Below are positions 37,181 through 58,125 of a stretch of DNA of 58,146 nucleotides, piece after piece. Below the pieces are notes generated by a model. It made no database searches. It saw only the letters and a program-made list of their open reading frames with translations, and was not told the DNA's origin. Position numbers and translations under genes: made by a program. How positions within the stretch are numbered: the stretch's first letter is position 1; each line of letters starts with the position of its first letter. This stretch comes from a virus (lineage: Duplodnaviria > Caudoviricetes), in IMG/VR virus record IMGVR_UViG_3300022920_000008, positions 1-58,146 of that record; one strand, 5' to 3'.

Positions 37181-38203
37181 ATGTTCGATAAGGTAGTAAT
37201 TTTTACTGACATTCACTTTGGCATGAAAAACAATAGCCGTCAACATAACATTGATTGTGAACAGTTTATTATATGGATGATTGATGAAGCTCACAAGCGT
37301 GGCATTAAGAAAGCCTTCTTCTTGGGAGATTGGCATCACAATAGAGCAAGCATCAATGTTAGTACACTAAATTATACAATGAGTAATTTGCAACGACTTA
37401 ATGATGCATTTGACGAAGTTGTTATGATTACAGGCAATCATGATTTGTATTATAGAGAAAAACGTGAGATCCACAGTGTGCCTATGGTAGAGATGTATCC
37501 AAACTTACGCATGATTAATGATGGGATATATGAAGAAGACGGATGTGCATTTATACCTTGGTTGGTTGATGACGAATGGAAAAAACTTAAAGAAGTTAAA
37601 TCACGTTTTGTTTTTGGTCATTTTGAACTTCCTAGCTTTTATATGAATGCAATGGTGCAAATGCCAGATCATGGACATGGCTTAAAAGCTGAACACATGA
37701 GCAAAGCTGAAAAGGTGTTTAGTGGTCACTTCCACAAACGACAAGAAAAAGGCAACATCATTTATCCTGGAAATGCTTTCCCGCATAACTTTAGTGATGC
37801 GTGGGACGACGATCGAGGTTTTACTATTTTAGATTGGGATGGCTCACATGAATACGTTACTTGGAAAGATGCTCCAAAGTATCGTACTATTCCGCTATCT
37901 AAATTGATTGACAGACCTGAAGAAATATTGTCTAATAACACATATTGTCGTGTAGCATTAGATGTACCAATTACATATGAAGAAGCAAACTTTATTAAAG
38001 AAACATTTGCTACACAATATGACTTGCGTGAAATTGCGCTGTTGCCAAGTAAAAAAGAAGAGCATGCCCAAGAGTGGGATAGTAGCGCACAACTAGAAGT
38101 AGAAAATGTAGATAGCATAGTGTTAAATCAACTTAAAGCTATTGATAGTCCTACTATTAGTAATAATATACTTATTGACATTTATAACGGATTGAACCTT
38201 TAA
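37181..38203 (+). CDS. gp47: recombination endonuclease subunit (Mre11/SbcD-like)
   Basis: DIHFG, GDWHH, GNHD and GHFH phosphoesterase motifs. Confidence 0.92.
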   Translation: MFDKVVIFTDIHFGMKNNSRQHNIDCEQFIIWMIDEAHKRGIKKAFFLGDWHHNRASINVSTLNYTMSNLQRLNDAFDEVVMITGNHDLYYREKREIHSVPMVEMYPNLRMINDGIYEEDGCAFIPWLVDDEWKKLKEVKSRFVFGHFELPSFYMNAMVQMPDHGHGLKAEHMSKAEKVFSGHFHKRQEKGNIIYPGNAFPHNFSDAWDDDRGFTILDWDGSHEYVTWKDAPKYRTIPLSKLIDRPEEILSNNTYCRVALDVPITYEEANFIKETFATQYDLREIALLPSKKEEHAQEWDSSAQLEVENVDSIVLNQLKAIDSPTISNNILIDIYNGLNL

Positions 38204-38204
38204 T

Positions 38205-39980
38205 ATGCTAGAAATTAAAAATATCACAGTAAAAAACTTTATGAGCGTGGGTAATGTTACTCAAGCAGTAAATTTTAATCATGACGGATTAACACTTGTG
38301 TTGGGGAATAACTTGGACTTGGGTGGCGATGGTTCACGTAATGGTACAGGAAAAACTACTATTGTTAATGCACTTAGTTATGCGCTATATGGAAATGCCC
38401 TCTACAATATTAAAAAAGACAATCTAGTTAATAAAACTAACAACAAACAAATGATGGTAACTGTAGAGTTTGTAAAGGATGGTATTAATTACACTATTGA
38501 ACGTGGACGTAGACCTAATATATTCCGCTTTATGGTTGGAGGTGTTGATAACTTAGAAGGCGTTAGTGACGAAATGCAAGGCGAAGGTCGCTTAACACAA
38601 ATTGCAATTGAAAAAGTTTTAGGTATGAGCCATACAATGTTTAAGCACATTATGGCACTTAACACTTATACTGATCCGTTCTTAAGTATGCGAGCTAATG
38701 AGCAACGTGACTTAATTGAGCAACTGTTGGGTATTACTCAACTGTCAGAGAAAGCAGACATACTTAAAGACTTGACAAAGCAAAGCAAAGATAGTATTCA
38801 AGAAGAAACATATCGCATACGTGGTATTGAAGAAGCTAATGAACATATTAACAAAAGTATTAGTGATATGGAAAGACGCCAGCGTGTGTGGAACAAGAGC
38901 AATGCTGATCAAATTAATAGACTAGAAACAGATTTACTTGCTTTGCAACAAATTGATATTGATACAGAAATTACCAATCACGCTGCATTTGATGAATACA
39001 ATCAAACAAAAATACAGATTGATACACTAACTAGTGAAGTTGCAAAACTTACAAGTAGCGTAGATCGTGAACAGCGTAGACTTGTCAAAGCACAAAAAGA
39101 TTTACAAGCTACAATGGATCACACCTGTTATGCATGTGGGCAAGAACTACATGATGATGCACACGAAAAGATTCTAGCATCAAAGCAAGAAGCAGTTGAT
39201 GAAAGTCAACTACTAATTAACGAATACGAAGAATCAATTGCAGAGTATAATGAAGCACTTACAAGCATTGGTAATTTAGGAGTTGCTCCTGTGTTACAGT
39301 ATAACACATTACAAGAAGCATATGAGCACCAAAACAAATTATCTAATACTGGTACCGAGATTGAACGAAAGAAAACTGAGATTGATCCATATGCTGAACA
39401 AATTGAGTCACTTAAAGATACTGGTTTGCAGATAGTAAATTGGGATGAGGTAAATAGACTTACGGAGTTAAAGGACCATCAGGACTTCCTTATGAAACTT
39501 TTAACAAATAAAGATAGCTTTATCCGTAAACGTATTATTGAACAAAATTTACAGTTCTTAAACAATCGATTGGAATACTATATTACCAAGCTTGGACTTC
39601 CACATGAAGTACAATTCCAAAGTGATTTAACTGTTAGCATTATACAACTTGGTCAAGACTTAGATTTTGATAATCTATCACGTGGAGAACGTAATAGACT
39701 TATCCTTGGTTTAAGTTGGGCTTTCCGTGATGTATTTGAAAGTATGAATCATCCTATTAATCTTATCTGTATTGATGAGTTGGTAGATAGCGGTATGGAT
39801 ACTGTAGGTGTTGAAAGCGCACTTGGTGTCCTTAAGAAAATGGAGCGAGATCGCGAAAAGAACATTCTATTAATATCTCACAGGGATGAATTGGTAGGAA
39901 GGGTAAATAGTGTTTTACAAGTCACTAAAGAAAATGGCTTTACGACTTTTAACACGGAGATTGAGGTTATTGACGCATAA
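38205..39980 (+). CDS. gp46: recombination ATPase (Rad50/SbcC-like)
   Basis: KNFMS, NGTGKTT Walker A, CYAC zinc hook, LSRGE signature, ICIDE Walker B, ISH. Confidence 0.93.
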   Translation: MLEIKNITVKNFMSVGNVTQAVNFNHDGLTLVLGNNLDLGGDGSRNGTGKTTIVNALSYALYGNALYNIKKDNLVNKTNNKQMMVTVEFVKDGINYTIERGRRPNIFRFMVGGVDNLEGVSDEMQGEGRLTQIAIEKVLGMSHTMFKHIMALNTYTDPFLSMRANEQRDLIEQLLGITQLSEKADILKDLTKQSKDSIQEETYRIRGIEEANEHINKSISDMERRQRVWNKSNADQINRLETDLLALQQIDIDTEITNHAAFDEYNQTKIQIDTLTSEVAKLTSSVDREQRRLVKAQKDLQATMDHTCYACGQELHDDAHEKILASKQEAVDESQLLINEYEESIAEYNEALTSIGNLGVAPVLQYNTLQEAYEHQNKLSNTGTEIERKKTEIDPYAEQIESLKDTGLQIVNWDEVNRLTELKDHQDFLMKLLTNKDSFIRKRIIEQNLQFLNNRLEYYITKLGLPHEVQFQSDLTVSIIQLGQDLDFDNLSRGERNRLILGLSWAFRDVFESMNHPINLICIDELVDSGMDTVGVESALGVLKKMERDREKNILLISHRDELVGRVNSVLQVTKENGFTTFNTEIEVIDA

Positions 39981-40272
39981 GGACAAAAAGTATATATACG
40001 AAAGTCCTGATGGCGGTAAAACCCTAACTCGTCGACTTATCGGCGATACAACCAAAGAAATATTATCTAAATCAGTTGACATCGACATTAGCGATGTTAT
40101 ACTAATAGAACATGTAAAAAACATTAGAAGTAAACAAGACGCTCTTTTTGAAGATGATTTGTTTACAGACTTTGAAGGTTGGGAAATATTGCCCAACTTA
40201 CATGATCCACAGGTAAAAAGACTATTAGGTACCGATGTACTGCAGCAATTGAAAAAAGCACTTGGCGAATAA
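39970..40272 (+). CDS. hypothetical phage protein
   Basis: YIYESPDGGKT motif; probable TTG start at 39970 overlapping the gp46 stop. Confidence 0.6.
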   Translation: MTHKDKKYIYESPDGGKTLTRRLIGDTTKEILSKSVDIDISDVILIEHVKNIRSKQDALFEDDLFTDFEGWEILPNLHDPQVKRLLGTDVLQQLKKALGE

Positions 40273-40744
40273 AAAACAAATTGATTTGTCAGGTTGGACG
40301 TACAAAGGAAAACCAGTTACAGAACTACCAGAAGATTGCGCTGGTTTTGTATACTTAATAACGAATACTACAAACAGCAGAATGTATGTTGGGAAAAAAC
40401 TAGCTAAGTTTTCTAAAACAAGATACAAGATGCACACACAAAAAAATGGCAAAAAAGTAAAAAAGAAAATCAAATCAAAAGTTGACTCAGATTGGCAGAC
40501 ATATTTTGGAAGTTCAAAATTGCTAACTGAAGATATTACTAATATAGGCACAACACAATTCAAAAGAGAAATACTATATTACTGTAGTAGCAAAGGCGAA
40601 TGCTCCTACGTTGAGGCACGAGAACAATTCGAAAGAAAAGTTTTAGAAACAGATGAGTACTACAATGGACATATTCAAGTCCGTGTGCATGGCTCCCATA
40701 TACTAACAGAAAATCTTATTAAAAACTCTCAAAGACACTCTTAA
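40262..40744 (+). CDS. stand-alone GIY-YIG endonuclease (T4 EndoII/Seg-like catalytic domain)
   Basis: GFVYLITN...MYVGKK, YFGSS, F.REIL, YVEAREQF, YYN; no appended DNA-binding domain. Confidence 0.85.
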   Translation: MANKKQIDLSGWTYKGKPVTELPEDCAGFVYLITNTTNSRMYVGKKLAKFSKTRYKMHTQKNGKKVKKKIKSKVDSDWQTYFGSSKLLTEDITNIGTTQFKREILYYCSSKGECSYVEAREQFERKVLETDEYYNGHIQVRVHGSHILTENLIKNSQRHS

Positions 40745-40780
40745 AACACTCCACACAGAACCCTACAAACTGAACAAAAG

Positions 40781-41196
40781 GTTGGCACGCCAGATAATAT
40801 TGTGCTGTGAATCCGTTCCTAATAGTGACGGTAAGCAATGGGCTATTCAGTTGTCCGTTTCAACAGTCTACCCTCTTTAAGCGGAGGATGCCTAAAAAGA
40901 CCATGCCTATGCGTGAGTGCTTTACTGTTGTCATAAAGGTTGTAGCACAGAGATGTGTGAATAAAATGAACGAGCTCTATTGAACTATTATAACTCGTGA
41001 AGTAACTGGAAAGCTTATATCATGGCAAACCAGTATATACTTGCGTTGAGACGCATTGTAATAGGAGGTACCGCACAACCGCCTCCCCTTTAAACAAAGT
41101 TATGTTATGATATTGTGGGTAATTGCGACGGGAACGTTTAAATTATTTTTTTACACTTGGCCTTATATCAGGCTAAGTGTGATTAAAAGCTCGTGG
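40781..41196 (+). ncRNA. candidate large structured ncRNA (~420 nt)
   Basis: ORF-free stretch with at least 10 stems, a GAGA tetraloop and a pseudoknot traced by eye (see findings). Strand is inferred from the G-U pairs. Confidence 0.65.
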
Positions 41197-41385
41197 AAAG
41201 TATTATAATATTGTTACCATATGACATCATAATAAATGATAAAAAATATTATGTTCGGTATTAACTATTAAAAAAAAATTCAACAAAGGAATTGAAGATT
41301 CCTGATGTTGATATTGCTCGAAGAGCAATTTGATGGTTCATTAAGATGACTAAATATTATTAGGTAATGACATTTAAGCATACCT

Positions 41386-41874
41386 ATGAATAAATCCAGG
41401 AAACTAACTAATATGACATTTGATGAATTTACTGCTGCGTTCTTAACGTGGACAGAAGAAAAAATCGAGTCCAAAGGAGATGGCGATTGGCCAGTGTGTC
41501 CGTATGCCCGCAAAGCTAGACTTACTAATAAAATACAGTTTATAGATGCTCGTGACGATGTACATACATCACTCAAACTGTTTGATGATACAACTTATGA
41601 AATTGGTATTGCATGGTTGGGAGATGATAATCAGGCAGATATCGAAGCAACACAAAAAGTTATTGACTTTTACGGTGATCTCAATCCTAGTTTGTTGTAT
41701 TTTATGAGTACAACTGATAGCGGAGCATTTGAAAAGAATTTTACCAATTGTGTGTTTATTCAACTCAAAGACGATATTCTTGTCAAACGTAACTGGCTAT
41801 TGGAAAATACTTCATATTATAATGATTGGTCGCCAGAATACTTCAAGAGCATAACTGGCTTAGATAAAACTTAA
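41386..41874 (+). CDS. hypothetical protein (CPYA motif)
   Basis: 162 aa, WPVCPYARKA; TAAATA at 41351-41356 upstream. Confidence 0.7.
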   Translation: MNKSRKLTNMTFDEFTAAFLTWTEEKIESKGDGDWPVCPYARKARLTNKIQFIDARDDVHTSLKLFDDTTYEIGIAWLGDDNQADIEATQKVIDFYGDLNPSLLYFMSTTDSGAFEKNFTNCVFIQLKDDILVKRNWLLENTSYYNDWSPEYFKSITGLDKT

Positions 41875-41878
41875 CCAA

Positions 41879-42118
41879 TTATCTTCTTGACGCCGCCGCT
41901 GCTTTAGCATTTTGGTCTTCTCTTATTGCGTTCAGCCTTGATACAAAAAGTTCAATAGCTGGAACCGGCATACATAATACGTCTTGATAGTTTATTGCCC
42001 CTCCACTATTTAGAACAATATCTATATAGCTAGATTCAAGAGATTTTAATTGATTATTATATCTCTCAATCACTGCTTCAAGCTGTTCGGGCTGACTAGT
42101 GGCAATCAGCCCGCGAAA
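41879..42118 (-). CDS. gp51-like hub assembly protein, probably the -1 frameshift extension of the gp26-like gene
   Basis: The frame is open from the slippery site at 42118 to the stop at 41879; its own GTG (42073) lacks a good RBS; gp26-gp51 synteny. Confidence 0.6.
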   Translation of the reverse strand, partial: FRGLIATSQPEQLEAVIERYNNQLKSLESSYIDIVLNSGGAINYQDVLCMPVPAIELFVSRLNAIREDQNAKAAAASRR

Positions 42119-42936
42119 AAATTTGCAACATCCAAATCAATTTTTGTCTTCCATTCATGCGAACAGTGCTGGCAGTTTGCTGTCAAATTAGTATCAATGC
42201 AATCATCGCTAACTGCATCAACAGTACTTCTCAACATATCATAATCATCTTTTGTAATGCTTTGTAACCATTCTTTGATTATAACCTGGTCTGTGATTTC
42301 TTCGCCTTCTGGTGGCCTAACTGCGTATATGCAATTTGAAATTAAATCAACTGTTAAATTGGCAAGCTCAATAAAAGTTTTACCAAATTGTTCACTACGT
42401 TGCTCTTCAGTTAAATCACTAGCAGTTAATGATTGAATCATTTTCTGTTGTTTAACTTGTTGAATTTGCAATAGCGTACGGTCTTTTAAACTGTAAGGCT
42501 TAACATGTATTGTGAAATTATTTTCAAGTACCAATTTATCACTAACTTGATTCTGTGATACTGTTGATAGCAAACGATTTGAATCAACAGCAAGCATATT
42601 AAGTTCTTGACAAGCTGGGCATTTGATATCAACACTAAGTTCACTACCATGTGTTGCTTGTCTGATACCAAGTAATACCACCAACAAATCATTAACTGGC
42701 ATTTGCTCTGGGTCAATTACATCAGGACAACAACTACGCAACACAGCAAAGGTAGCTTCGCCGTTGAATAACGCATCTGGTGTTTTATAAAGCAATTCGT
42801 CTCTGGCAGTCATGGCATATACTGCCAATTCACCATCAACACTTAGTTTTGGTTTGTCTGTATAATATTTGCCGCCGCTGGGTAAGCTGACGTATAATGC
42901 TGGCTTTCTATAAGCCGCTACTAATGGGTTTGTCAT
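42106..42936 (-). CDS. gp26: baseplate hub assembly chaperone gp26-like
   Basis: NPL...R.P..Y..LPSGG.YY, MTARDE...KTPDAL.NG, CPAC and CQHC, C-terminal NFF. Confidence 0.8.
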   Translation of the reverse strand: MTNPLVAAYRKPALYVSLPSGGKYYTDKPKLSVDGELAVYAMTARDELLYKTPDALFNGEATFAVLRSCCPDVIDPEQMPVNDLLVVLLGIRQATHGSELSVDIKCPACQELNMLAVDSNRLLSTVSQNQVSDKLVLENNFTIHVKPYSLKDRTLLQIQQVKQQKMIQSLTASDLTEEQRSEQFGKTFIELANLTVDLISNCIYAVRPPEGEEITDQVIIKEWLQSITKDDYDMLRSTVDAVSDDCIDTNLTANCQHCSHEWKTKIDLDVANFFAG

Positions 42937-43013: not shown

Positions 43014-45899
43014 GTGAATTTTGAGAAAGAATTTCAAAAAATAAATGCAAAATACCCTTGGCTAAAAGAAGCTACTTTATATAATGCAGTAGAAGTAATC
43101 GGTAATGATATAAAAGCTGATACCAAACTACAAGAACAATTTAATAAAAACAAGCCAGATCCACAAAAATTTGATAATGTAACCAAGTCTTTAATGAAAG
43201 ATCTAGTATCAAAAGGTAATCAGCAGGCCAAACGACTAAAATCTGCAACACGAGCAGCCTTAATGATAGGAAGAAGTTCTTCTCCAATATCAAGTACTGC
43301 TACACTAGTCCAAAGTGCTGGGTTAGCAGCTAACAGATTAGGTAACGGTGTTGCAAATTCATCAAGAACTGGTTTGTTAGGTGACGTTGGCGGTGGATCA
43401 ATAGCAGCATTTGGTATAGGTGCCGCAGCATATTCCGGCGCCATGATTATGTATGGCAAGCTAATGGAAGAACAAGAAAAAGCATCACGTGCAATGATCA
43501 ATCAAGGTTTGCTTGTTACTGACGTTGACCTGTTTACCCGTATGAAAAATACGTTTGCAGAAGCAGGTATGTCTTTAAATGAGGGAATGGAATCATTAGG
43601 TGATTTAATACCAACATTTGCTAACTTGGGAGATAGCTCAGCAAAAGTAATTACTGATTTTATTCAAGGTCTTGACACTGCATTAGATTCTGATGTAATT
43701 CATAAATTTGGACAACGAAGAAACGTAGTAGTTAGACAAGTATCTGAAACATTAACTTCACTTCGTAACATTAATAGTATAGATGATTTAAACCAAATGT
43801 CAATGAACAAAGTTTTAGATCGTTACGAATCAAATGCTAGAATTATATTTGGTGTCAGTCAACTAATGGGCGTTACTGCTGATTCAGAAAGATCTAGCCG
43901 AATGGAAGCCAGCAACAATATTAATTTTATTGTAGCAATGAGAAATAGTCAAGCAGCCATTATTGATAGATTGGGAGAAATTGGGTATGACAATTTACAG
44001 CAAGCACAATCTAGTTTTGTATCTGGACTAAATTATTTAGGTAACGAGTTTAGCACACTAGCAAGTAATGCACTCAATAGAGCAGTTTATGATTATGATA
44101 CAGACACAAACTTCCGTAACAATATTGATACTGAATTAAATGAAGTACTAAATCTATTAGGTCCATCAGCTAGACAAAGTTTCATAGATTTAGGACAGCA
44201 GCTTCTAGATGGTGAGCTATTTGGAATTGAGCTAGAAATTGCAAAGCGTGACTTCTTTAATACTGTTCGTAACTCATCTGACAGTCCAATTGCAAATGCA
44301 CAATTTCAAATTCCAGATGGGGAAATAGATATAGCCAGAGAAGTGTATAATAGAAGCTTTTTAATTGGTGATGAATTTATGAATGCTACTGACTTAGAAT
44401 TGGTTGAGTTAGCTGCTGCCGGCGCTGCCCTTACTGATAATGCTGACGATGCATTAGTAGTTGTTGACACTTTGGCAATTGCATTACGTAAAGTGTATAA
44501 TTTAATGACTCCTGGCTTTGCTACAACTGGGCAAGCTATGAGTTATTTCAATGATAATTTACAAAGATTAGTAGGCGGTACTGATAGTCTTTTAACTGCA
44601 TTAGAAACAACGTTCAGTGTAGAAAGAGAAGGTCCTCCATCTGTAGGCAGTCGTGGAAGAAATCAAAGAAGGGGCGATCGTGCTGGTACAACATCTACAG
44701 GCGATTCGACATCACCAGGCTCTCCAACACCATCTGTAGGCAGTCGTGGAAGAAATCAAAGAAGGGGCGATCGTGCTGGTACAACATCTACAGGCGATTC
44801 GACATCACCAAGGTCGCCAGGCAACAGCAACTCTACAATCGTTGGCGGCGTAACATTATATCAAGGTGGAGAGTACGGCGTTAATACTACTGAGGGTAGG
44901 TCGGTGTTATTAGATATGTCAGGCGGTGGTGCAAGTAATATGGTTCGAGATGGTGCTCAGGAAAATTTAGATAGATTGCTCAGTGGACCTTATGCAAGGA
45001 TGCAGGAATATTATGGCGGTCCATTAAGCATTAATGATGCCATTGCAAAACACGGAACCTCCCGTGAAGACACCACACCAAACAGTCAACACTTTTTTGG
45101 AAATGCTCTTGACATAGGCACACATAACATGAGCAATGAAGACAAAGCTAGGATAGTACACGCAGCATTGAGAGCAGGGTTTACAGGATTTGGATTTGGC
45201 GCTGGTATTTTGCACGTTGACGTAGGAAGAGCAAGAAGTTGGAGTTATAATAATTCTCATTATGGTGGGTTGCCAGTTAGCGATTGGCAATCGTTTGTTG
45301 CTGGCAATGCAGTTGCAGCTATACAAGAAGTTGAATTGCAAGGATTGCAAAGTGAGTTTGCATCAGAATCTCAAGATCAACCAACAGATGAAACTTCAGA
45401 TGTAATTCCAGATAATCCAGACTCAGTTGAACCAGGTTCTCCTACACAAGTTATAATACCGGAAGGTAATGGCCCGCCATTATCTGAATCACAAGACTCA
45501 GAAGAGCTTAGTACACTTGATACGTCAGATATTAATTTACGACAAATAGCAAGCGCAAGAGATGATCTTTATGCCGAATATTGGAATCCAGATACCTCTA
45601 CATCAAGAATACTAGAAATAGAACGCAGTTTAGGACGTATTGAATCTGAATACGGAGATCATATTAGTGGCATGGGCTTTGACATAACACCAGGAACTGG
45701 ACAGCAAAGTTATCACCTGTTAGACGAACGTTTACAGGAACGTTATGAAGAATCATTAAACAATAATGATACTGAAACTATTAGTATAATAAATTCACGC
45801 ATACAGGATGAAATTGATAGAGCTAATATTACTCGTACTGCATGGCAATCAATATTTGATGCTGGTGCTAATAGTCGAAGAATAAGCGAGACAGTATAA
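43014..45899 (+). CDS. tape-measure-like protein 1 with peptidase M15-like domain
   Basis: Long helical Ala/Leu-rich N-terminal half; SQHFFGNALDI...GFTGFGFG...LHVDVG (H, D, H Zn ligands of the M15/LAS fold). Confidence 0.65.
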   Translation: MNFEKEFQKINAKYPWLKEATLYNAVEVIGNDIKADTKLQEQFNKNKPDPQKFDNVTKSLMKDLVSKGNQQAKRLKSATRAALMIGRSSSPISSTATLVQSAGLAANRLGNGVANSSRTGLLGDVGGGSIAAFGIGAAAYSGAMIMYGKLMEEQEKASRAMINQGLLVTDVDLFTRMKNTFAEAGMSLNEGMESLGDLIPTFANLGDSSAKVITDFIQGLDTALDSDVIHKFGQRRNVVVRQVSETLTSLRNINSIDDLNQMSMNKVLDRYESNARIIFGVSQLMGVTADSERSSRMEASNNINFIVAMRNSQAAIIDRLGEIGYDNLQQAQSSFVSGLNYLGNEFSTLASNALNRAVYDYDTDTNFRNNIDTELNEVLNLLGPSARQSFIDLGQQLLDGELFGIELEIAKRDFFNTVRNSSDSPIANAQFQIPDGEIDIAREVYNRSFLIGDEFMNATDLELVELAAAGAALTDNADDALVVVDTLAIALRKVYNLMTPGFATTGQAMSYFNDNLQRLVGGTDSLLTALETTFSVEREGPPSVGSRGRNQRRGDRAGTTSTGDSTSPGSPTPSVGSRGRNQRRGDRAGTTSTGDSTSPRSPGNSNSTIVGGVTLYQGGEYGVNTTEGRSVLLDMSGGGASNMVRDGAQENLDRLLSGPYARMQEYYGGPLSINDAIAKHGTSREDTTPNSQHFFGNALDIGTHNMSNEDKARIVHAALRAGFTGFGFGAGILHVDVGRARSWSYNNSHYGGLPVSDWQSFVAGNAVAAIQEVELQGLQSEFASESQDQPTDETSDVIPDNPDSVEPGSPTQVIIPEGNGPPLSESQDSEELSTLDTSDINLRQIASARDDLYAEYWNPDTSTSRILEIERSLGRIESEYGDHISGMGFDITPGTGQQSYHLLDERLQERYEESLNNNDTETISIINSRIQDEIDRANITRTAWQSIFDAGANSRRISETV
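44637..44810 (+). repeat. 81-bp perfect direct repeat (44637-44717 and 44730-44810, period 93)
   Basis: Identical copies encoding PSVGSRGRNQRRGDRAGTTSTGDSTSP. Confidence 0.95.
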
Positions 45900-57337: not shown

Positions 57338-57368
57338 AAGTACATAAGCTAAACGACGGTTTAGATTA

Positions 57369-57548
57369 GATAGTGCAAGGAAATGTCGTTTCGTAAGGAC
57401 GATAACTTGGCTAGTAGCTGTAGTGGCAGCGTATGAGCATGGAGACATGAAGATACGTAGATTCAAACGTAACTGTTTGATACTAGGCGCAACTGAATGT
57501 ATGAAATACTTACTAGGTTGTTGGAGGTAGACTGTAATCCTCCCTATC
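57369..57548 (+). ncRNA. candidate structured ncRNA (~180 nt)
   Basis: Closing GATAG/CTATC stem, multibranch junctions, GTAA and GAGA tetraloops, own promoter. Confidence 0.65.
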
Positions 57549-57678
57549 ACTTTATATTAAGTACAGAAGCAATTAGAAAGATTTTAACATGTCAAATACT
57601 ACATCATATATATTAGGATGGCCGCCAAGAGATTGGGGAATGTTTTGACGTGACTTTTTAATAAAAGTTATTTTAAGC

Positions 57679-57713
57679 AAGCCCCTAGTGTTAATTCATT
57701 AGGGGCTTTTTTT
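57679..57713 (+). terminator. intrinsic terminator
   Basis: AAGCCCCTAGTG-ttaatt-CATTAGGGGCTT followed by a T run. Confidence 0.8.
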
Positions 57714-57715
57714 AT

Positions 57716-57789
57716 AAGCACACTATGTCCCACTGCAATGGGAAGTTTTGCAGAACATAGATCCCGAAAGGATTGAAGTTAGTGTGTTT
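57716..57789 (+). ncRNA. candidate small pseudoknotted RNA
   Basis: 10-bp outer stem; TCCCA/TGGGA hairpin whose loop CTGCAA is complementary to TTGCAG; GAAA-capped hairpin. Confidence 0.45.
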
Positions 57790-57798
57790 TTAAAAAAT

Positions 57799-57872
57799 GA
57801 GGGTGTAGTGAAATGGTATCACGCTGGTCTCCAAAACCAGAAGCAGGAGTTCGATTCTCCTCACCTTTGCCA
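57799..57872 (+). tRNA. trnW: tRNA-Trp(CCA)
   Basis: Cloverleaf; anticodon arm CTGGT-ctCCAaa-ACCAG; GTTCGA T-loop; encoded CCA. Confidence 0.92.
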
Positions 57873-57882
57873 AATATAAAGC

Positions 57883-57958
57883 GGGCCGGTAGCTCAGTTG
57901 GTAGAGCAACTGACTTTTAATCAGTAGGTCTCGGGTTCGAACCCCGACCGGCTCACCA
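57883..57958 (+). tRNA. trnK: tRNA-Lys(TTT)
   Basis: Canonical 76-nt cloverleaf; ACTGA-ctTTTaa-TCAGT; CCA end. Confidence 0.96.
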
Positions 57959-57968
57959 CTATAATAAC

Positions 57969-58044
57969 ACTCCTCTAGCTCAATGGTTAGAGCAGAACGC
58001 TCATAACGTTTTGGTTACAGGTTCGAGTCTCTCCACCTATGCCA
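57969..58044 (+). pseudogene. chimeric/pseudo tRNA with CAT anticodon (Met/Ile2-type 5' part)
   Basis: D and anticodon arms are intact, but the T stem (ACAGG/CTCTC) and acceptor stem (ACTCCTC/CACCTAT) do not pair; still ends in GCCA. Confidence 0.75.
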
Positions 58045-58048
58045 ATTA

Positions 58049-58125
58049 CTCGGATTAGCGCAGTCTGGCAGCGCATCTGCTTTGGGAGCAGAGGGTCGTA
58101 GGTTCGAATCCTACATCCGAGACCA
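58049..58125 (+). tRNA. trnP: tRNA-Pro(TGG)
   Basis: CTCGGAT/ATCCGAG acceptor stem; TCTGC-ttTGGga-GCAGA; CCA end. Confidence 0.95.

Follow-up and report, generated by a model that had tools for sequence, protein, structure and literature searches.

Here, we describe a structured RNA encoded beside a small nuclease gene on a stretch of viral DNA of 58,146 nucleotides (nt) (the window; IMG/VR virus record IMGVR_UViG_3300022920_000008; Duplodnaviria; Caudoviricetes), which is a 58-kb piece with an estimated completeness of 16% and a T4-like gene content. Positions 40778-41196 of the window encode, on the plus strand, a real structured, multi-domain, pseudoknotted non-coding RNA of about 420 nt. 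We propose, with reasonable confidence, that it is a stand-alone phage RNA of the Polynucleobacter-1 class that lies beside a swappable, probably homing-type, nuclease cassette. The genes and other features of the locus are as follows, with lengths of proteins and open reading frames (ORFs) in amino acids (aa).

37181..38203, plus strand: gene for a gp47-like (Mre11/SbcD-type) phosphoesterase (Pfam Metallophos, E 4.4e-07; blastn matches to annotated SbcD/gp47 of jumbo phages).
38205..39980, plus strand: gene for a gp46-like (Rad50/SbcC-type) ATPase, the fixed left anchor of the locus (Pfam AAA_23 and SMC_N).
39982..40272, plus strand: small ORF of about 96 aa after the gp46 stop, inside the variable slot (from the ORF list).
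40262..40744, plus strand: gene for a single-domain SegE-type GIY-YIG nuclease of 160 aa (PF19835, E 7.6e-33).
40778..41196, plus strand: the structured RNA, itemised below.
41197..41385, plus strand: AT-rich spacer (24% G+C, 189 nt) with two small hairpins, outside the conserved RNA (by composition and fold).
41386..41874, plus strand: gene for a 162-aa protein, the usual right-hand neighbour of the RNA (cluster 3, 37 members in RNA loci).
42106..42936, minus strand: convergent gp26-like baseplate gene, the right anchor of the locus (PF12322 T4_baseplate, E 6.3e-15; cluster 2, 53 members).

As an earlier note on this DNA had it, the gap between the nuclease gene and the 162-aa gene (40745-41385, 641 nt) is the longest internal stretch without ORFs of at least 60 aa. 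Elsewhere in the window, only the tRNA/manA end has anything comparable. In most RNA loci, gp46 lies on the upstream side and a gp26-like gene on the downstream side, with the gp46-like protein (cluster 0) found upstream in RNA loci as 59 ORFs.

The case for a real RNA structure was built on relatives of the locus, which are referred to here by L numbers. The sequence set was the best 80 of 488 relatives of the GIY-YIG protein in viral_contigs, several of which share the downstream non-coding DNA. A covariance model of 234 positions, R1, was built from 39 sequences and covers the core of the RNA only; it scores window positions 40957-41196 at 167 bits (E 1e-40), with the match ending at 41196. 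Because a plain MAFFT alignment misplaced parts of the sequences, RNAalifold found no more than 14 pairs on it, and the helices were therefore defined by hand and aligned with the covariance model. Across 83 R1-aligned matches (81 of them distinct), 91.8% of cells at paired positions are paired, compared with 66.0% in shuffled controls and 36-48% when partners are slid, and two-sided changes number 634 cells against 201 in shuffles. The parts of the RNA are listed here.

40778..40940, plus strand: 5' domain, comprising hairpins 40784-40806, 40813-40831 and 40837-40859 and then a three-way junction (compensatory changes relative to L006/L008).
40945..40958, plus strand: small hairpin GCACA-GAGA-UGUGU (compensatory C>U / G>A in L003).
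40970..40998, plus strand: helix H2, with outer pairs 40970-74/40994-98, inner pairs 40978-80/40990-92 and a conserved AAAAUGA before it.
41000..41042, plus strand: hairpin H3, whose loop 41018-41025 takes part in a pseudoknot (an equivalent hairpin of at least 6 pairs in 72/72 distinct sequences).
41042..41055, plus strand: variable hairpin H5 (UGCGU-UGAG-ACGCA), after a conserved UGCGUU (a local hairpin).
41064..41086, plus strand: hairpin H6, whose near-invariant loop GGUAC-M-GC-RY-AACCGCC is the signature of the family.
41088..41099, plus strand: small hairpin H7 (3/3 pairs with two-sided changes, 85.4% paired).
41105..41112, plus strand: 3' strand of the pseudoknot helix H4, which pairs with 41018-41025.
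41153..41180, plus strand: terminal hairpin H9, followed by a conserved AAGURYGA (87.3% paired, 5/8 pairs covary).
41181..41196, plus strand: 3' tail (similarity to L003 decays past about 41196).

The 5' domain varies among subfamilies. Its three-way junction is closed by 40861-67/40924-30 and holds the hairpins CCTC/GAGG and CATGC/GCGTG, and stem changes were already visible in the first alignment, where relatives replace CAACAGT/ACTGTTG by CAATACA/TGTATTG, CCTC/GAGG by CCGG/CCGG, CATGC/GCGTG by CTTGC/GCGAG and, in the core, GGAGG/CCTCC by AAAGG/CCTTT. Most of the stems that the earlier note had picked out by eye hold up: GGCAC/GTGCT, CAACAGT/ACTGTTG, CCTC/GAGG, CATGC/GCGTG and GCACA/TGTGT show compensatory changes in L003/L006/L008, while ACGAG/CTCGT, GGAGG/CCTCC and the hairpin at 41153-41180 covary in the 81 distinct sequences, and the hairpin at 41000-41042 has the equivalents listed above. 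Two others, CCGT/ACGG and AATGGGC/GTCCGTT, are present but without variation in the few relatives that share them. The small hairpin at 40945-40958 aligns poorly in the wider family.

Within the core, H2 is paired in 96.7-98.4% of cells, shows two-sided changes in 6/8 pairs and has as many as four standard pair types at one pair. The stem sequences of H3 are unrelated among the 72 distinct sequences, and the H4 helix formed by its loop pairs in 38-39/39 sequences at six positions, with two-sided changes at 8/8 pairs and 89.4% pairing overall. This pseudoknot was overlooked in the earlier note, which had proposed another (41069-78 with 41113-21) that is not conserved, given that it pairs in 1-29 of 41 sequences per position and in at most 17 at nine of its ten positions. 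The candidate ACGGG/CTCGT pairing occurs in 13-41 of 41 sequences, depending on position. Equivalents of H5 differ among relatives, and its pairing in A2 is no more than partial, and H6 is 95.9% paired, three of its pairs covarying and three being invariant. A candidate loop-tail pairing (41074-77 with 41178-81) is 80.5% complementary, no better than in shuffles, and is unsupported. The strand of the RNA is fixed as plus because R1 matches on that strand only and because one invariant U-G pair and the many G-U pairs would turn into C-A mismatches if the opposite strand were read, which bears out the earlier suggestion that the G-U pairs favour a plus-strand RNA. The minimum free energy z-score adds a weak strand signal (-3.55 on the plus strand, -2.87 on the minus strand).

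Although the earlier note could not assign the RNA to a known family, that position is now overturned. Judged by its conserved blocks, the window RNA is a divergent member of the Polynucleobacter-1 class (RF01718), first listed in 2010, and the window core (about 230 nt) and the 3' extension of that RNA are homologous. The full class is about 370-450 nt long and consists of a variable 5' domain and the conserved core, whose elements run in the order AAAAUGA, two-part hairpin, hairpin with a loop that pairs further downstream, hairpin with a near-invariant 13-nt loop, two small hairpins and terminal hairpin.

RF01718 itself misses the window copy. An Rfam scan of the window at gathering thresholds gave no family for the gap RNA, RF01718 (threshold 37 bits) included, and a scan of 40600-41500 at E<=10 also gave no RF01718 and only a chance RAGATH-7 fragment (E 3.9). 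The Rfam check divides: the gap RNA is without a match, but relatives do match RF01718, whose model has 141 positions and covers the 5' domain only. Directly 5' of the R1 core, matches of 74-114 bits occur at 13 of the 29 loci scanned (1 of 9 in one set and 12 of 20 in another), RF01718-positive loci occur within the R1 training set itself (L084, L097, L101, L109 and L140), and no family other than RF01718 was found in the relatives scanned with Rfam. An nhmmer profile of the RF01718-type 5' domain found it in 66 loci, with no match in the window. By eye, the window 5' domain (40784-40930) has three hairpins and a three-way junction with an arm CUACCCUC-UUUAAGC-GGAGG, and the class 5' domain combines its three hairpins with a three-way junction that carries CACUAUCC-UUAA-GGA; the two layouts are comparable, without detectable sequence similarity.

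The published material of 2010 reaches beyond RF01718. The consensus drawing shows GGCAAAAGAG, GCCGUU, GUACCGG.AACCGCC and the legend "pseudoknot?" (PMC2864571, supplement 6), and several Stockholm rows span H2, H3, GCGUU and the GGUACCGCGUAACCGCC hairpin (PMC2864571, supplement 5). In those rows, as in the window core, we find AAAAUGA, H2, H3, GCGUU, the GGUAC..AACCGCC hairpin and the pseudoknot, and it is because they carry the same blocks that we take the window core to be the 3' extension of Polynucleobacter-1; the window RNA is about 100 nt longer at its 3' end (H8, H9 and tail) than the published rows. Since the 2010 alignment and drawing run about 150 nt past the 141 positions of RF01718, the Rfam model under-represents the published motif (PMC2864571). 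The 2010 table enters Polynucleobacter-1 as RNA "y" and cis-regulatory "y", from Burkholderiales and from fresh water or estuary (Weinberg et al. 2010, PMC2864571). In contrast to this description of a probably cis-regulatory RNA, the RNA of the window and its relatives is phage-borne, is present in seawater RNA libraries and is mostly without a same-strand gene after it. A full-text literature search for the name "Polynucleobacter-1" returned the 2010 paper only.

GOLLD and ROOL, both Rfam families, are large ornate RNAs often found on phages. The window RNA resembles them in being large, intricately folded and phage-borne but is smaller (about 420 nt) and is fixed in position by gp46 rather than by tRNA genes. 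At gathering thresholds, no Rfam match to GOLLD, ROOL, group I or group II intron models was found in the window.

The RNA is common, occurring on hundreds of contigs, in uncultured aquatic T4-like phages, where it lies downstream of gp47/gp46 as a fixed backbone gene that is always on the gp47/gp46 strand. A 19-nt degenerate pattern drawn from the H6 loop region, the most conserved loop, occurs in 96 stretches of viral_contigs. In cellular genomes (596 Gb), it occurs in 33 stretches, against about 35 expected from a chance estimate based on database size, and the full RNA is present at only one of these, the other 32 being motif-only. Hence the RNA is essentially phage-borne. The single full cellular match (L197, 1936-2154) is on a 10.8-kb contig of a metagenome-assembled genome labelled as an archaeon, and this is probably a phage contig that was mis-binned. 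A scan with RF01718 of 5 genomes with cellular pattern matches and of 151 genomes of one family gave nothing, but the controls were equally silent and the scan is uninformative. Searches of 50,697 phage records by blastn, with either the window RNA or an E-subfamily RNA as the query, gave no match.

How closely does the RNA keep company with a nuclease? On the protein side, an R1 match lies beside the gene in 65 of the best 80 of 488 GIY-YIG loci; at L052, L058 and L078 an RF01718-type 5' domain follows the GIY-YIG gene directly and the contig ends there, and in 5/80 loci nothing was found or the region is cut. On the RNA side, a first sample of 80 pattern loci with full flanks was reduced to 74 by removing 4 that are cut upstream and 2 chance matches in ORFs. 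A GIY-YIG gene is directly upstream in 53 of these 74 RNAs, and a gene for a protein of an unrelated nuclease family, PDDEXK_15 (PF24608, E about 1e-25), is directly upstream in 10 and one gene off in 6; five RNAs (three distinct sequences; L092, L103/L111 and L146/L159) have no nuclease. A second pattern gave at least 120 stretches, and of those listed, 68 had at least 900 nt upstream. Among the matches listed, 62/68 have GIY-YIG, 3/68 have PDDEXK and 1/68 is a chance match; L223 and L289 are real RNAs (72-78 bits) without a nuclease.

The slot between the gp46 stop codon and the RNA holds a GIY-YIG gene in tandem, a GIY-YIG gene inverted, or the unrelated PDDEXK_15 gene, and swapping at this slot is directly visible: in relatives with different nucleases, DNA homology ends at the gp46 stop codon and restarts at the RNA. 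The RNA is opposite in strand to, and upstream of the start of, the nuclease in 28 of the 65 GIY-YIG loci. In each of the inverted loci with gp46 in view (21/21), gp46 is on the RNA strand with the inverted nuclease between them, which identifies the nuclease as the piece that flips. A gp46 tree with 35 distinct rows requires 3 changes of nuclease type (bootstrap range 3-4).

The GIY-YIG protein is a compact enzyme, in keeping with the earlier note's account of a catalytic domain with only a Lys-rich insert. PF19835 is matched over 1-123 of its 123 positions by residues 12-138 of the 160-aa protein, which leaves no room for a DNA-binding domain, and PF01541 also matches; thus, of the Seg-type features, the SegE-type catalytic domain is present and a separate DNA-binding domain is absent. 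The Lys-rich stretch is conserved, with K61, N62, G63 and K68 invariant in 31 homologues, and forms a beta-hairpin in an AlphaFold model (predicted local distance difference test 79.4), whose tail (139-160) is of low confidence. The best fold match in the PDB is the I-TevI catalytic domain (prob 0.96, E 0.18), with no Foldseek match at E<=0.001; a PDB sequence search with the protein gave no match and a PDB profile search gave only a weak one (3r3p, E 0.005). Homologues with 36-55% identity occur in the cultured phages Methylophilales phage Melnitz (55%), Synechococcus S-RIM8, Stenotrophomonas Moby and Sinorhizobium phiN3. The Melnitz homologue sits after nrdB, a position that suggested orthology to T4 DenA (endonuclease II); this was set aside, the Pfam family being SegE. 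The window protein also matches PHROG 447, labelled "NAD synthetase", and the same label is found on the RefSeq entries of Moby, phiN3, S-RIM8 and other homologues; this seems to be an annotation error for a nuclease that has spread between records.

These observations suggest that the nuclease is probably a homing-type cassette beside a highly conserved RNA gene. T4 SegB offers a parallel: it is described as a free-standing GIY-YIG homing endonuclease in a tRNA gene cluster, which recognises an 11-bp conserved tRNA-gene motif and drives the inheritance of itself and of neighbouring RNA genes (PMC2330249). In both cases a T4-type phage has a GIY-YIG gene in the midst of, or adjoining, conserved genes for structured RNAs. 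Unlike SegB, the window nuclease has only 160 aa and no DNA-binding domain, and no empty-slot alleles were seen on the T4-like backbone among the loci examined. A literature search on GIY-YIG, structured RNA and phage found nothing on such a pairing among the papers listed.

Alternatively, the nuclease and RNA might form a ribonucleoprotein, as the earlier note had suggested, with the RNA as guide, specificity subunit or regulator of a single-domain nuclease, comparable to IscB/TnpB. The very tight adjacency of the two, the reduction of the nuclease to a catalytic domain and a conserved Lys-rich hairpin, and an RNA-library contig (40141-40814) that bridges the GIY-YIG ORF and the RNA 5' end all speak for it, as does a stretch of about 40 nt directly 3' of the RNA, in the AT-rich spacer, that differs between the window and the 91%-identical L003. 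The slot, however, accommodates two unrelated nuclease folds, and in the 28/65 loci where the GIY-YIG gene is inverted, gene and RNA are not co-transcribable. Furthermore, seven RNA loci (L092, L103/L111, L146/L159, L223 and L289) have no nearby nuclease, and an R1 scan of the whole genomes of Melnitz, S-RIM8, Moby and phiN3, which encode nuclease homologues, found the RNA in 0/4. The loop and linker sequences of the RNA are conserved rather than variable, and no guide-like hypervariable block was seen inside 40778-41196 in comparison with L003. The same features separate the locus from the OMEGA systems (IscB/TnpB with omega RNA; HEARO), which it resembles in that a large structured RNA adjoins a compact nuclease gene and mostly shares its strand: OMEGA nucleases are RuvC/HNH and those of this locus GIY-YIG or PDDEXK, there are no transposon ends, the RNA and nuclease are separable instead of co-occurring obligatorily as in OMEGA, and the Rfam scan gave no match to HEARO or related models. 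With an interchangeable slot gene, with RNA and nuclease occurring apart and with no guide segment seen, an RNA-guided nuclease is unlikely, and we would give the ribonucleoprotein in general little chance. RNAs unlinked to GIY-YIG genes do exist, behind PDDEXK_15 or without a nuclease, but most RNAs are still beside a GIY-YIG gene. Of the possibilities raised by the earlier note, that of a stand-alone large phage RNA is the one that gains support.

If the RNA is a stand-alone phage gene, what might its role be? In four metatranscriptome runs from two studies, contigs span the GIY-YIG gene and continue through the RNA up to 41095-41157; positions 41173-41239 are without contig cover in all four, which is no evidence of an RNA end. 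We suggest, at low confidence, that the RNA would be transcribed either together with the early/middle gp47-gp46 unit or immediately after it, that it may fold unaided into a compact pseudoknotted body, and that a protein or a second RNA could dock on its invariant loop, the RNA acting in trans during infection. Its size, its pseudoknot and its near-invariant unpaired loop fit such a docking, trans-acting RNA. A hint of a role in RNA or nucleic-acid end processing or RNA repair comes from jumbo-phage contigs (148-330 kb; L103, L146 and L092), where the RNA has no nuclease neighbour and RNA-repair genes are nearby. The neighbours there are a PolyA_pol-family enzyme with an HD domain, which looks like a CCA-adding enzyme, T4 RNA ligase 1, a cyclic-phosphate-processing receiver domain and a metallophosphoesterase. 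At L223, a gene for a Rv2179c-like 3'-5' exoribonuclease lies about 1 kb downstream of the RNA. An RNA-ligase theme shared by L289 and L223 was considered and dropped, the neighbours being DUF6267 and the Rv2179c-like exoribonuclease.

The RNA could instead act in cis at the end of an operon, as the 3' untranslated region of the gp47-gp46-nuclease messenger RNAs, where it would serve as a shield against 3' exonucleases or as an insulator from the convergent late baseplate genes. It is on the gp46 strand in every locus checked, and in the D/E subfamilies it marks the point where convergent genes meet; upstream there is no conspicuous sigma-70-like promoter, no intrinsic terminator was found after the RNA, and the RNA-library contigs continue from the ORF into the RNA. 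Yet a size of some 420 nt, a pseudoknot and unpaired loops that scarcely vary go far beyond what a 3' stabiliser needs, the inverted-cassette loci place two opposite-strand genes between gp46 and the RNA, and the RNA also occurs in unrelated jumbo-phage contexts. We therefore regard this explanation as improbable.

A cis-regulatory, riboswitch-like leader of the downstream gene is far harder to credit. In its favour are the 2010 table, which gives Polynucleobacter-1 as "cis-reg: y" (PMC2864571), and the same-strand gene that follows the RNA both in subfamily B and in the window. For the RF01718-positive subfamilies D/E, however, the next genes (clusters 7 and 2) are on the opposite strand, and for this reason the 2010 label fits poorly. 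In addition, 189 nt at 24% G+C separate the window RNA from the next start codon, the downstream genes vary by context, and L004/L005/L014 carry after the RNA the word TATAAATA, which we take to be the T4 late-promoter consensus. Similarly, there is very little to recommend a replication-origin transcript or primer RNA beside the recombination genes. The RNA adjoins gp46/gp47, on some contigs lies near replication-type genes, and is followed by AT-rich DNA, but the compensatory changes preserve intramolecular helices and a pseudoknot that an R-loop primer would not need, and the RNA is found in very different genome contexts.

Several points weigh against our preferred explanation of a conserved stand-alone RNA beside a homing-type cassette. 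Covariation was counted on an alignment fitted to R1, and many of the sequences are related. The RNA-library contigs indicate presence, not ends or levels, with DNA carry-over possible, and the function ascribed to the RNA is a matter of inference, held at low confidence. Homing genes are normally sporadic, whereas here a nuclease is upstream in 69/74 RNAs of the first sample and in 65/67 of the second (among the matches listed), the RNA core is beside 65/80 GIY-YIG loci, and no empty-slot allele was seen on a T4-like backbone among the loci examined. The well-supported branches of the gp46 tree force only 1 change of nuclease type. The nuclease is without a DNA-recognition domain, so that how it finds its site is left unexplained, a gap that an RNA guide would fill. 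Finally, the contigs come mostly from one lineage with conserved gene order and include many near-copies; the counts are therefore not independent, and the high percentages overstate independent support in either direction.

Some of these points could be accommodated if the RNA were part of a DNA-end-processing module with whichever slot nuclease is present (GIY-YIG or PDDEXK). It would then be either a substrate that is processed or a specificity or regulatory subunit, whether of the nuclease or of gp46/gp47. We consider this doubtful, but if true it would explain why a nuclease is almost constantly found beside the RNA on the T4-like backbone and why the slot nucleases are without a DNA-recognition domain.

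A second conserved structured element, of about 340-400 nt, follows the GIY-YIG gene in seven loci without the R1 core. It lies at L009:2096-2496, L060:4446-4788, L067:743-1125, L070:4706-5088 and L079/L082:4717-5100; L038 was assigned to this group by eye only, an anchor search having no match there. The 5' hairpin of the second element (AAGGUURGCGGGCCAG...) is similar to window 40778-40806, and its 3' tail (GACYGAA..AAUCUACA) to that of the main family; the element may be a diverged form of the main RNA. At L067:463-744, L070:4429-4707 and L079:4398-4718, the GIY-YIG gene and the second element are separated by an additional ORF, about 90 aa long, that has a CxxC pair.

Other features of the window are recorded here for completeness. 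The spacer hairpins at 41283-41335 (CAACAAAGGAAUUGAAGAUUCCUGAUGUUG and UUGCUCGAAGAGCAA) are kept in L003 and partly in L006 and could belong to the leader of the 162-aa gene. The 162-aa protein has no Pfam match and no tblastn match against the 50,697 phage records, and Pfam and PHROG searches with the small ORF at 39982..40272 gave no match. A 961-aa protein (43014-45899) contains a near-exact internal repeat of about 30 residues, PSVGSRGRNQRRGDRAGTTSTGDSTSP, present twice. The end of the window (57349-58122) carries a manA RNA (RF01745, 56.7 bits against a cut-off of 55.2 bits) followed by four tRNA genes.

Thus, the Polynucleobacter-1 unit is about three times larger than the 141-nt motif held in Rfam, is pseudoknotted and has subfamilies that are invisible to RF01718. 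A little-studied motif can thereby be defined as a phage RNA gene, one for which the test system is clear. In addition, the locus provides a natural example of nuclease cassettes, of two folds and in two orientations, competing for one slot by a conserved RNA gene.

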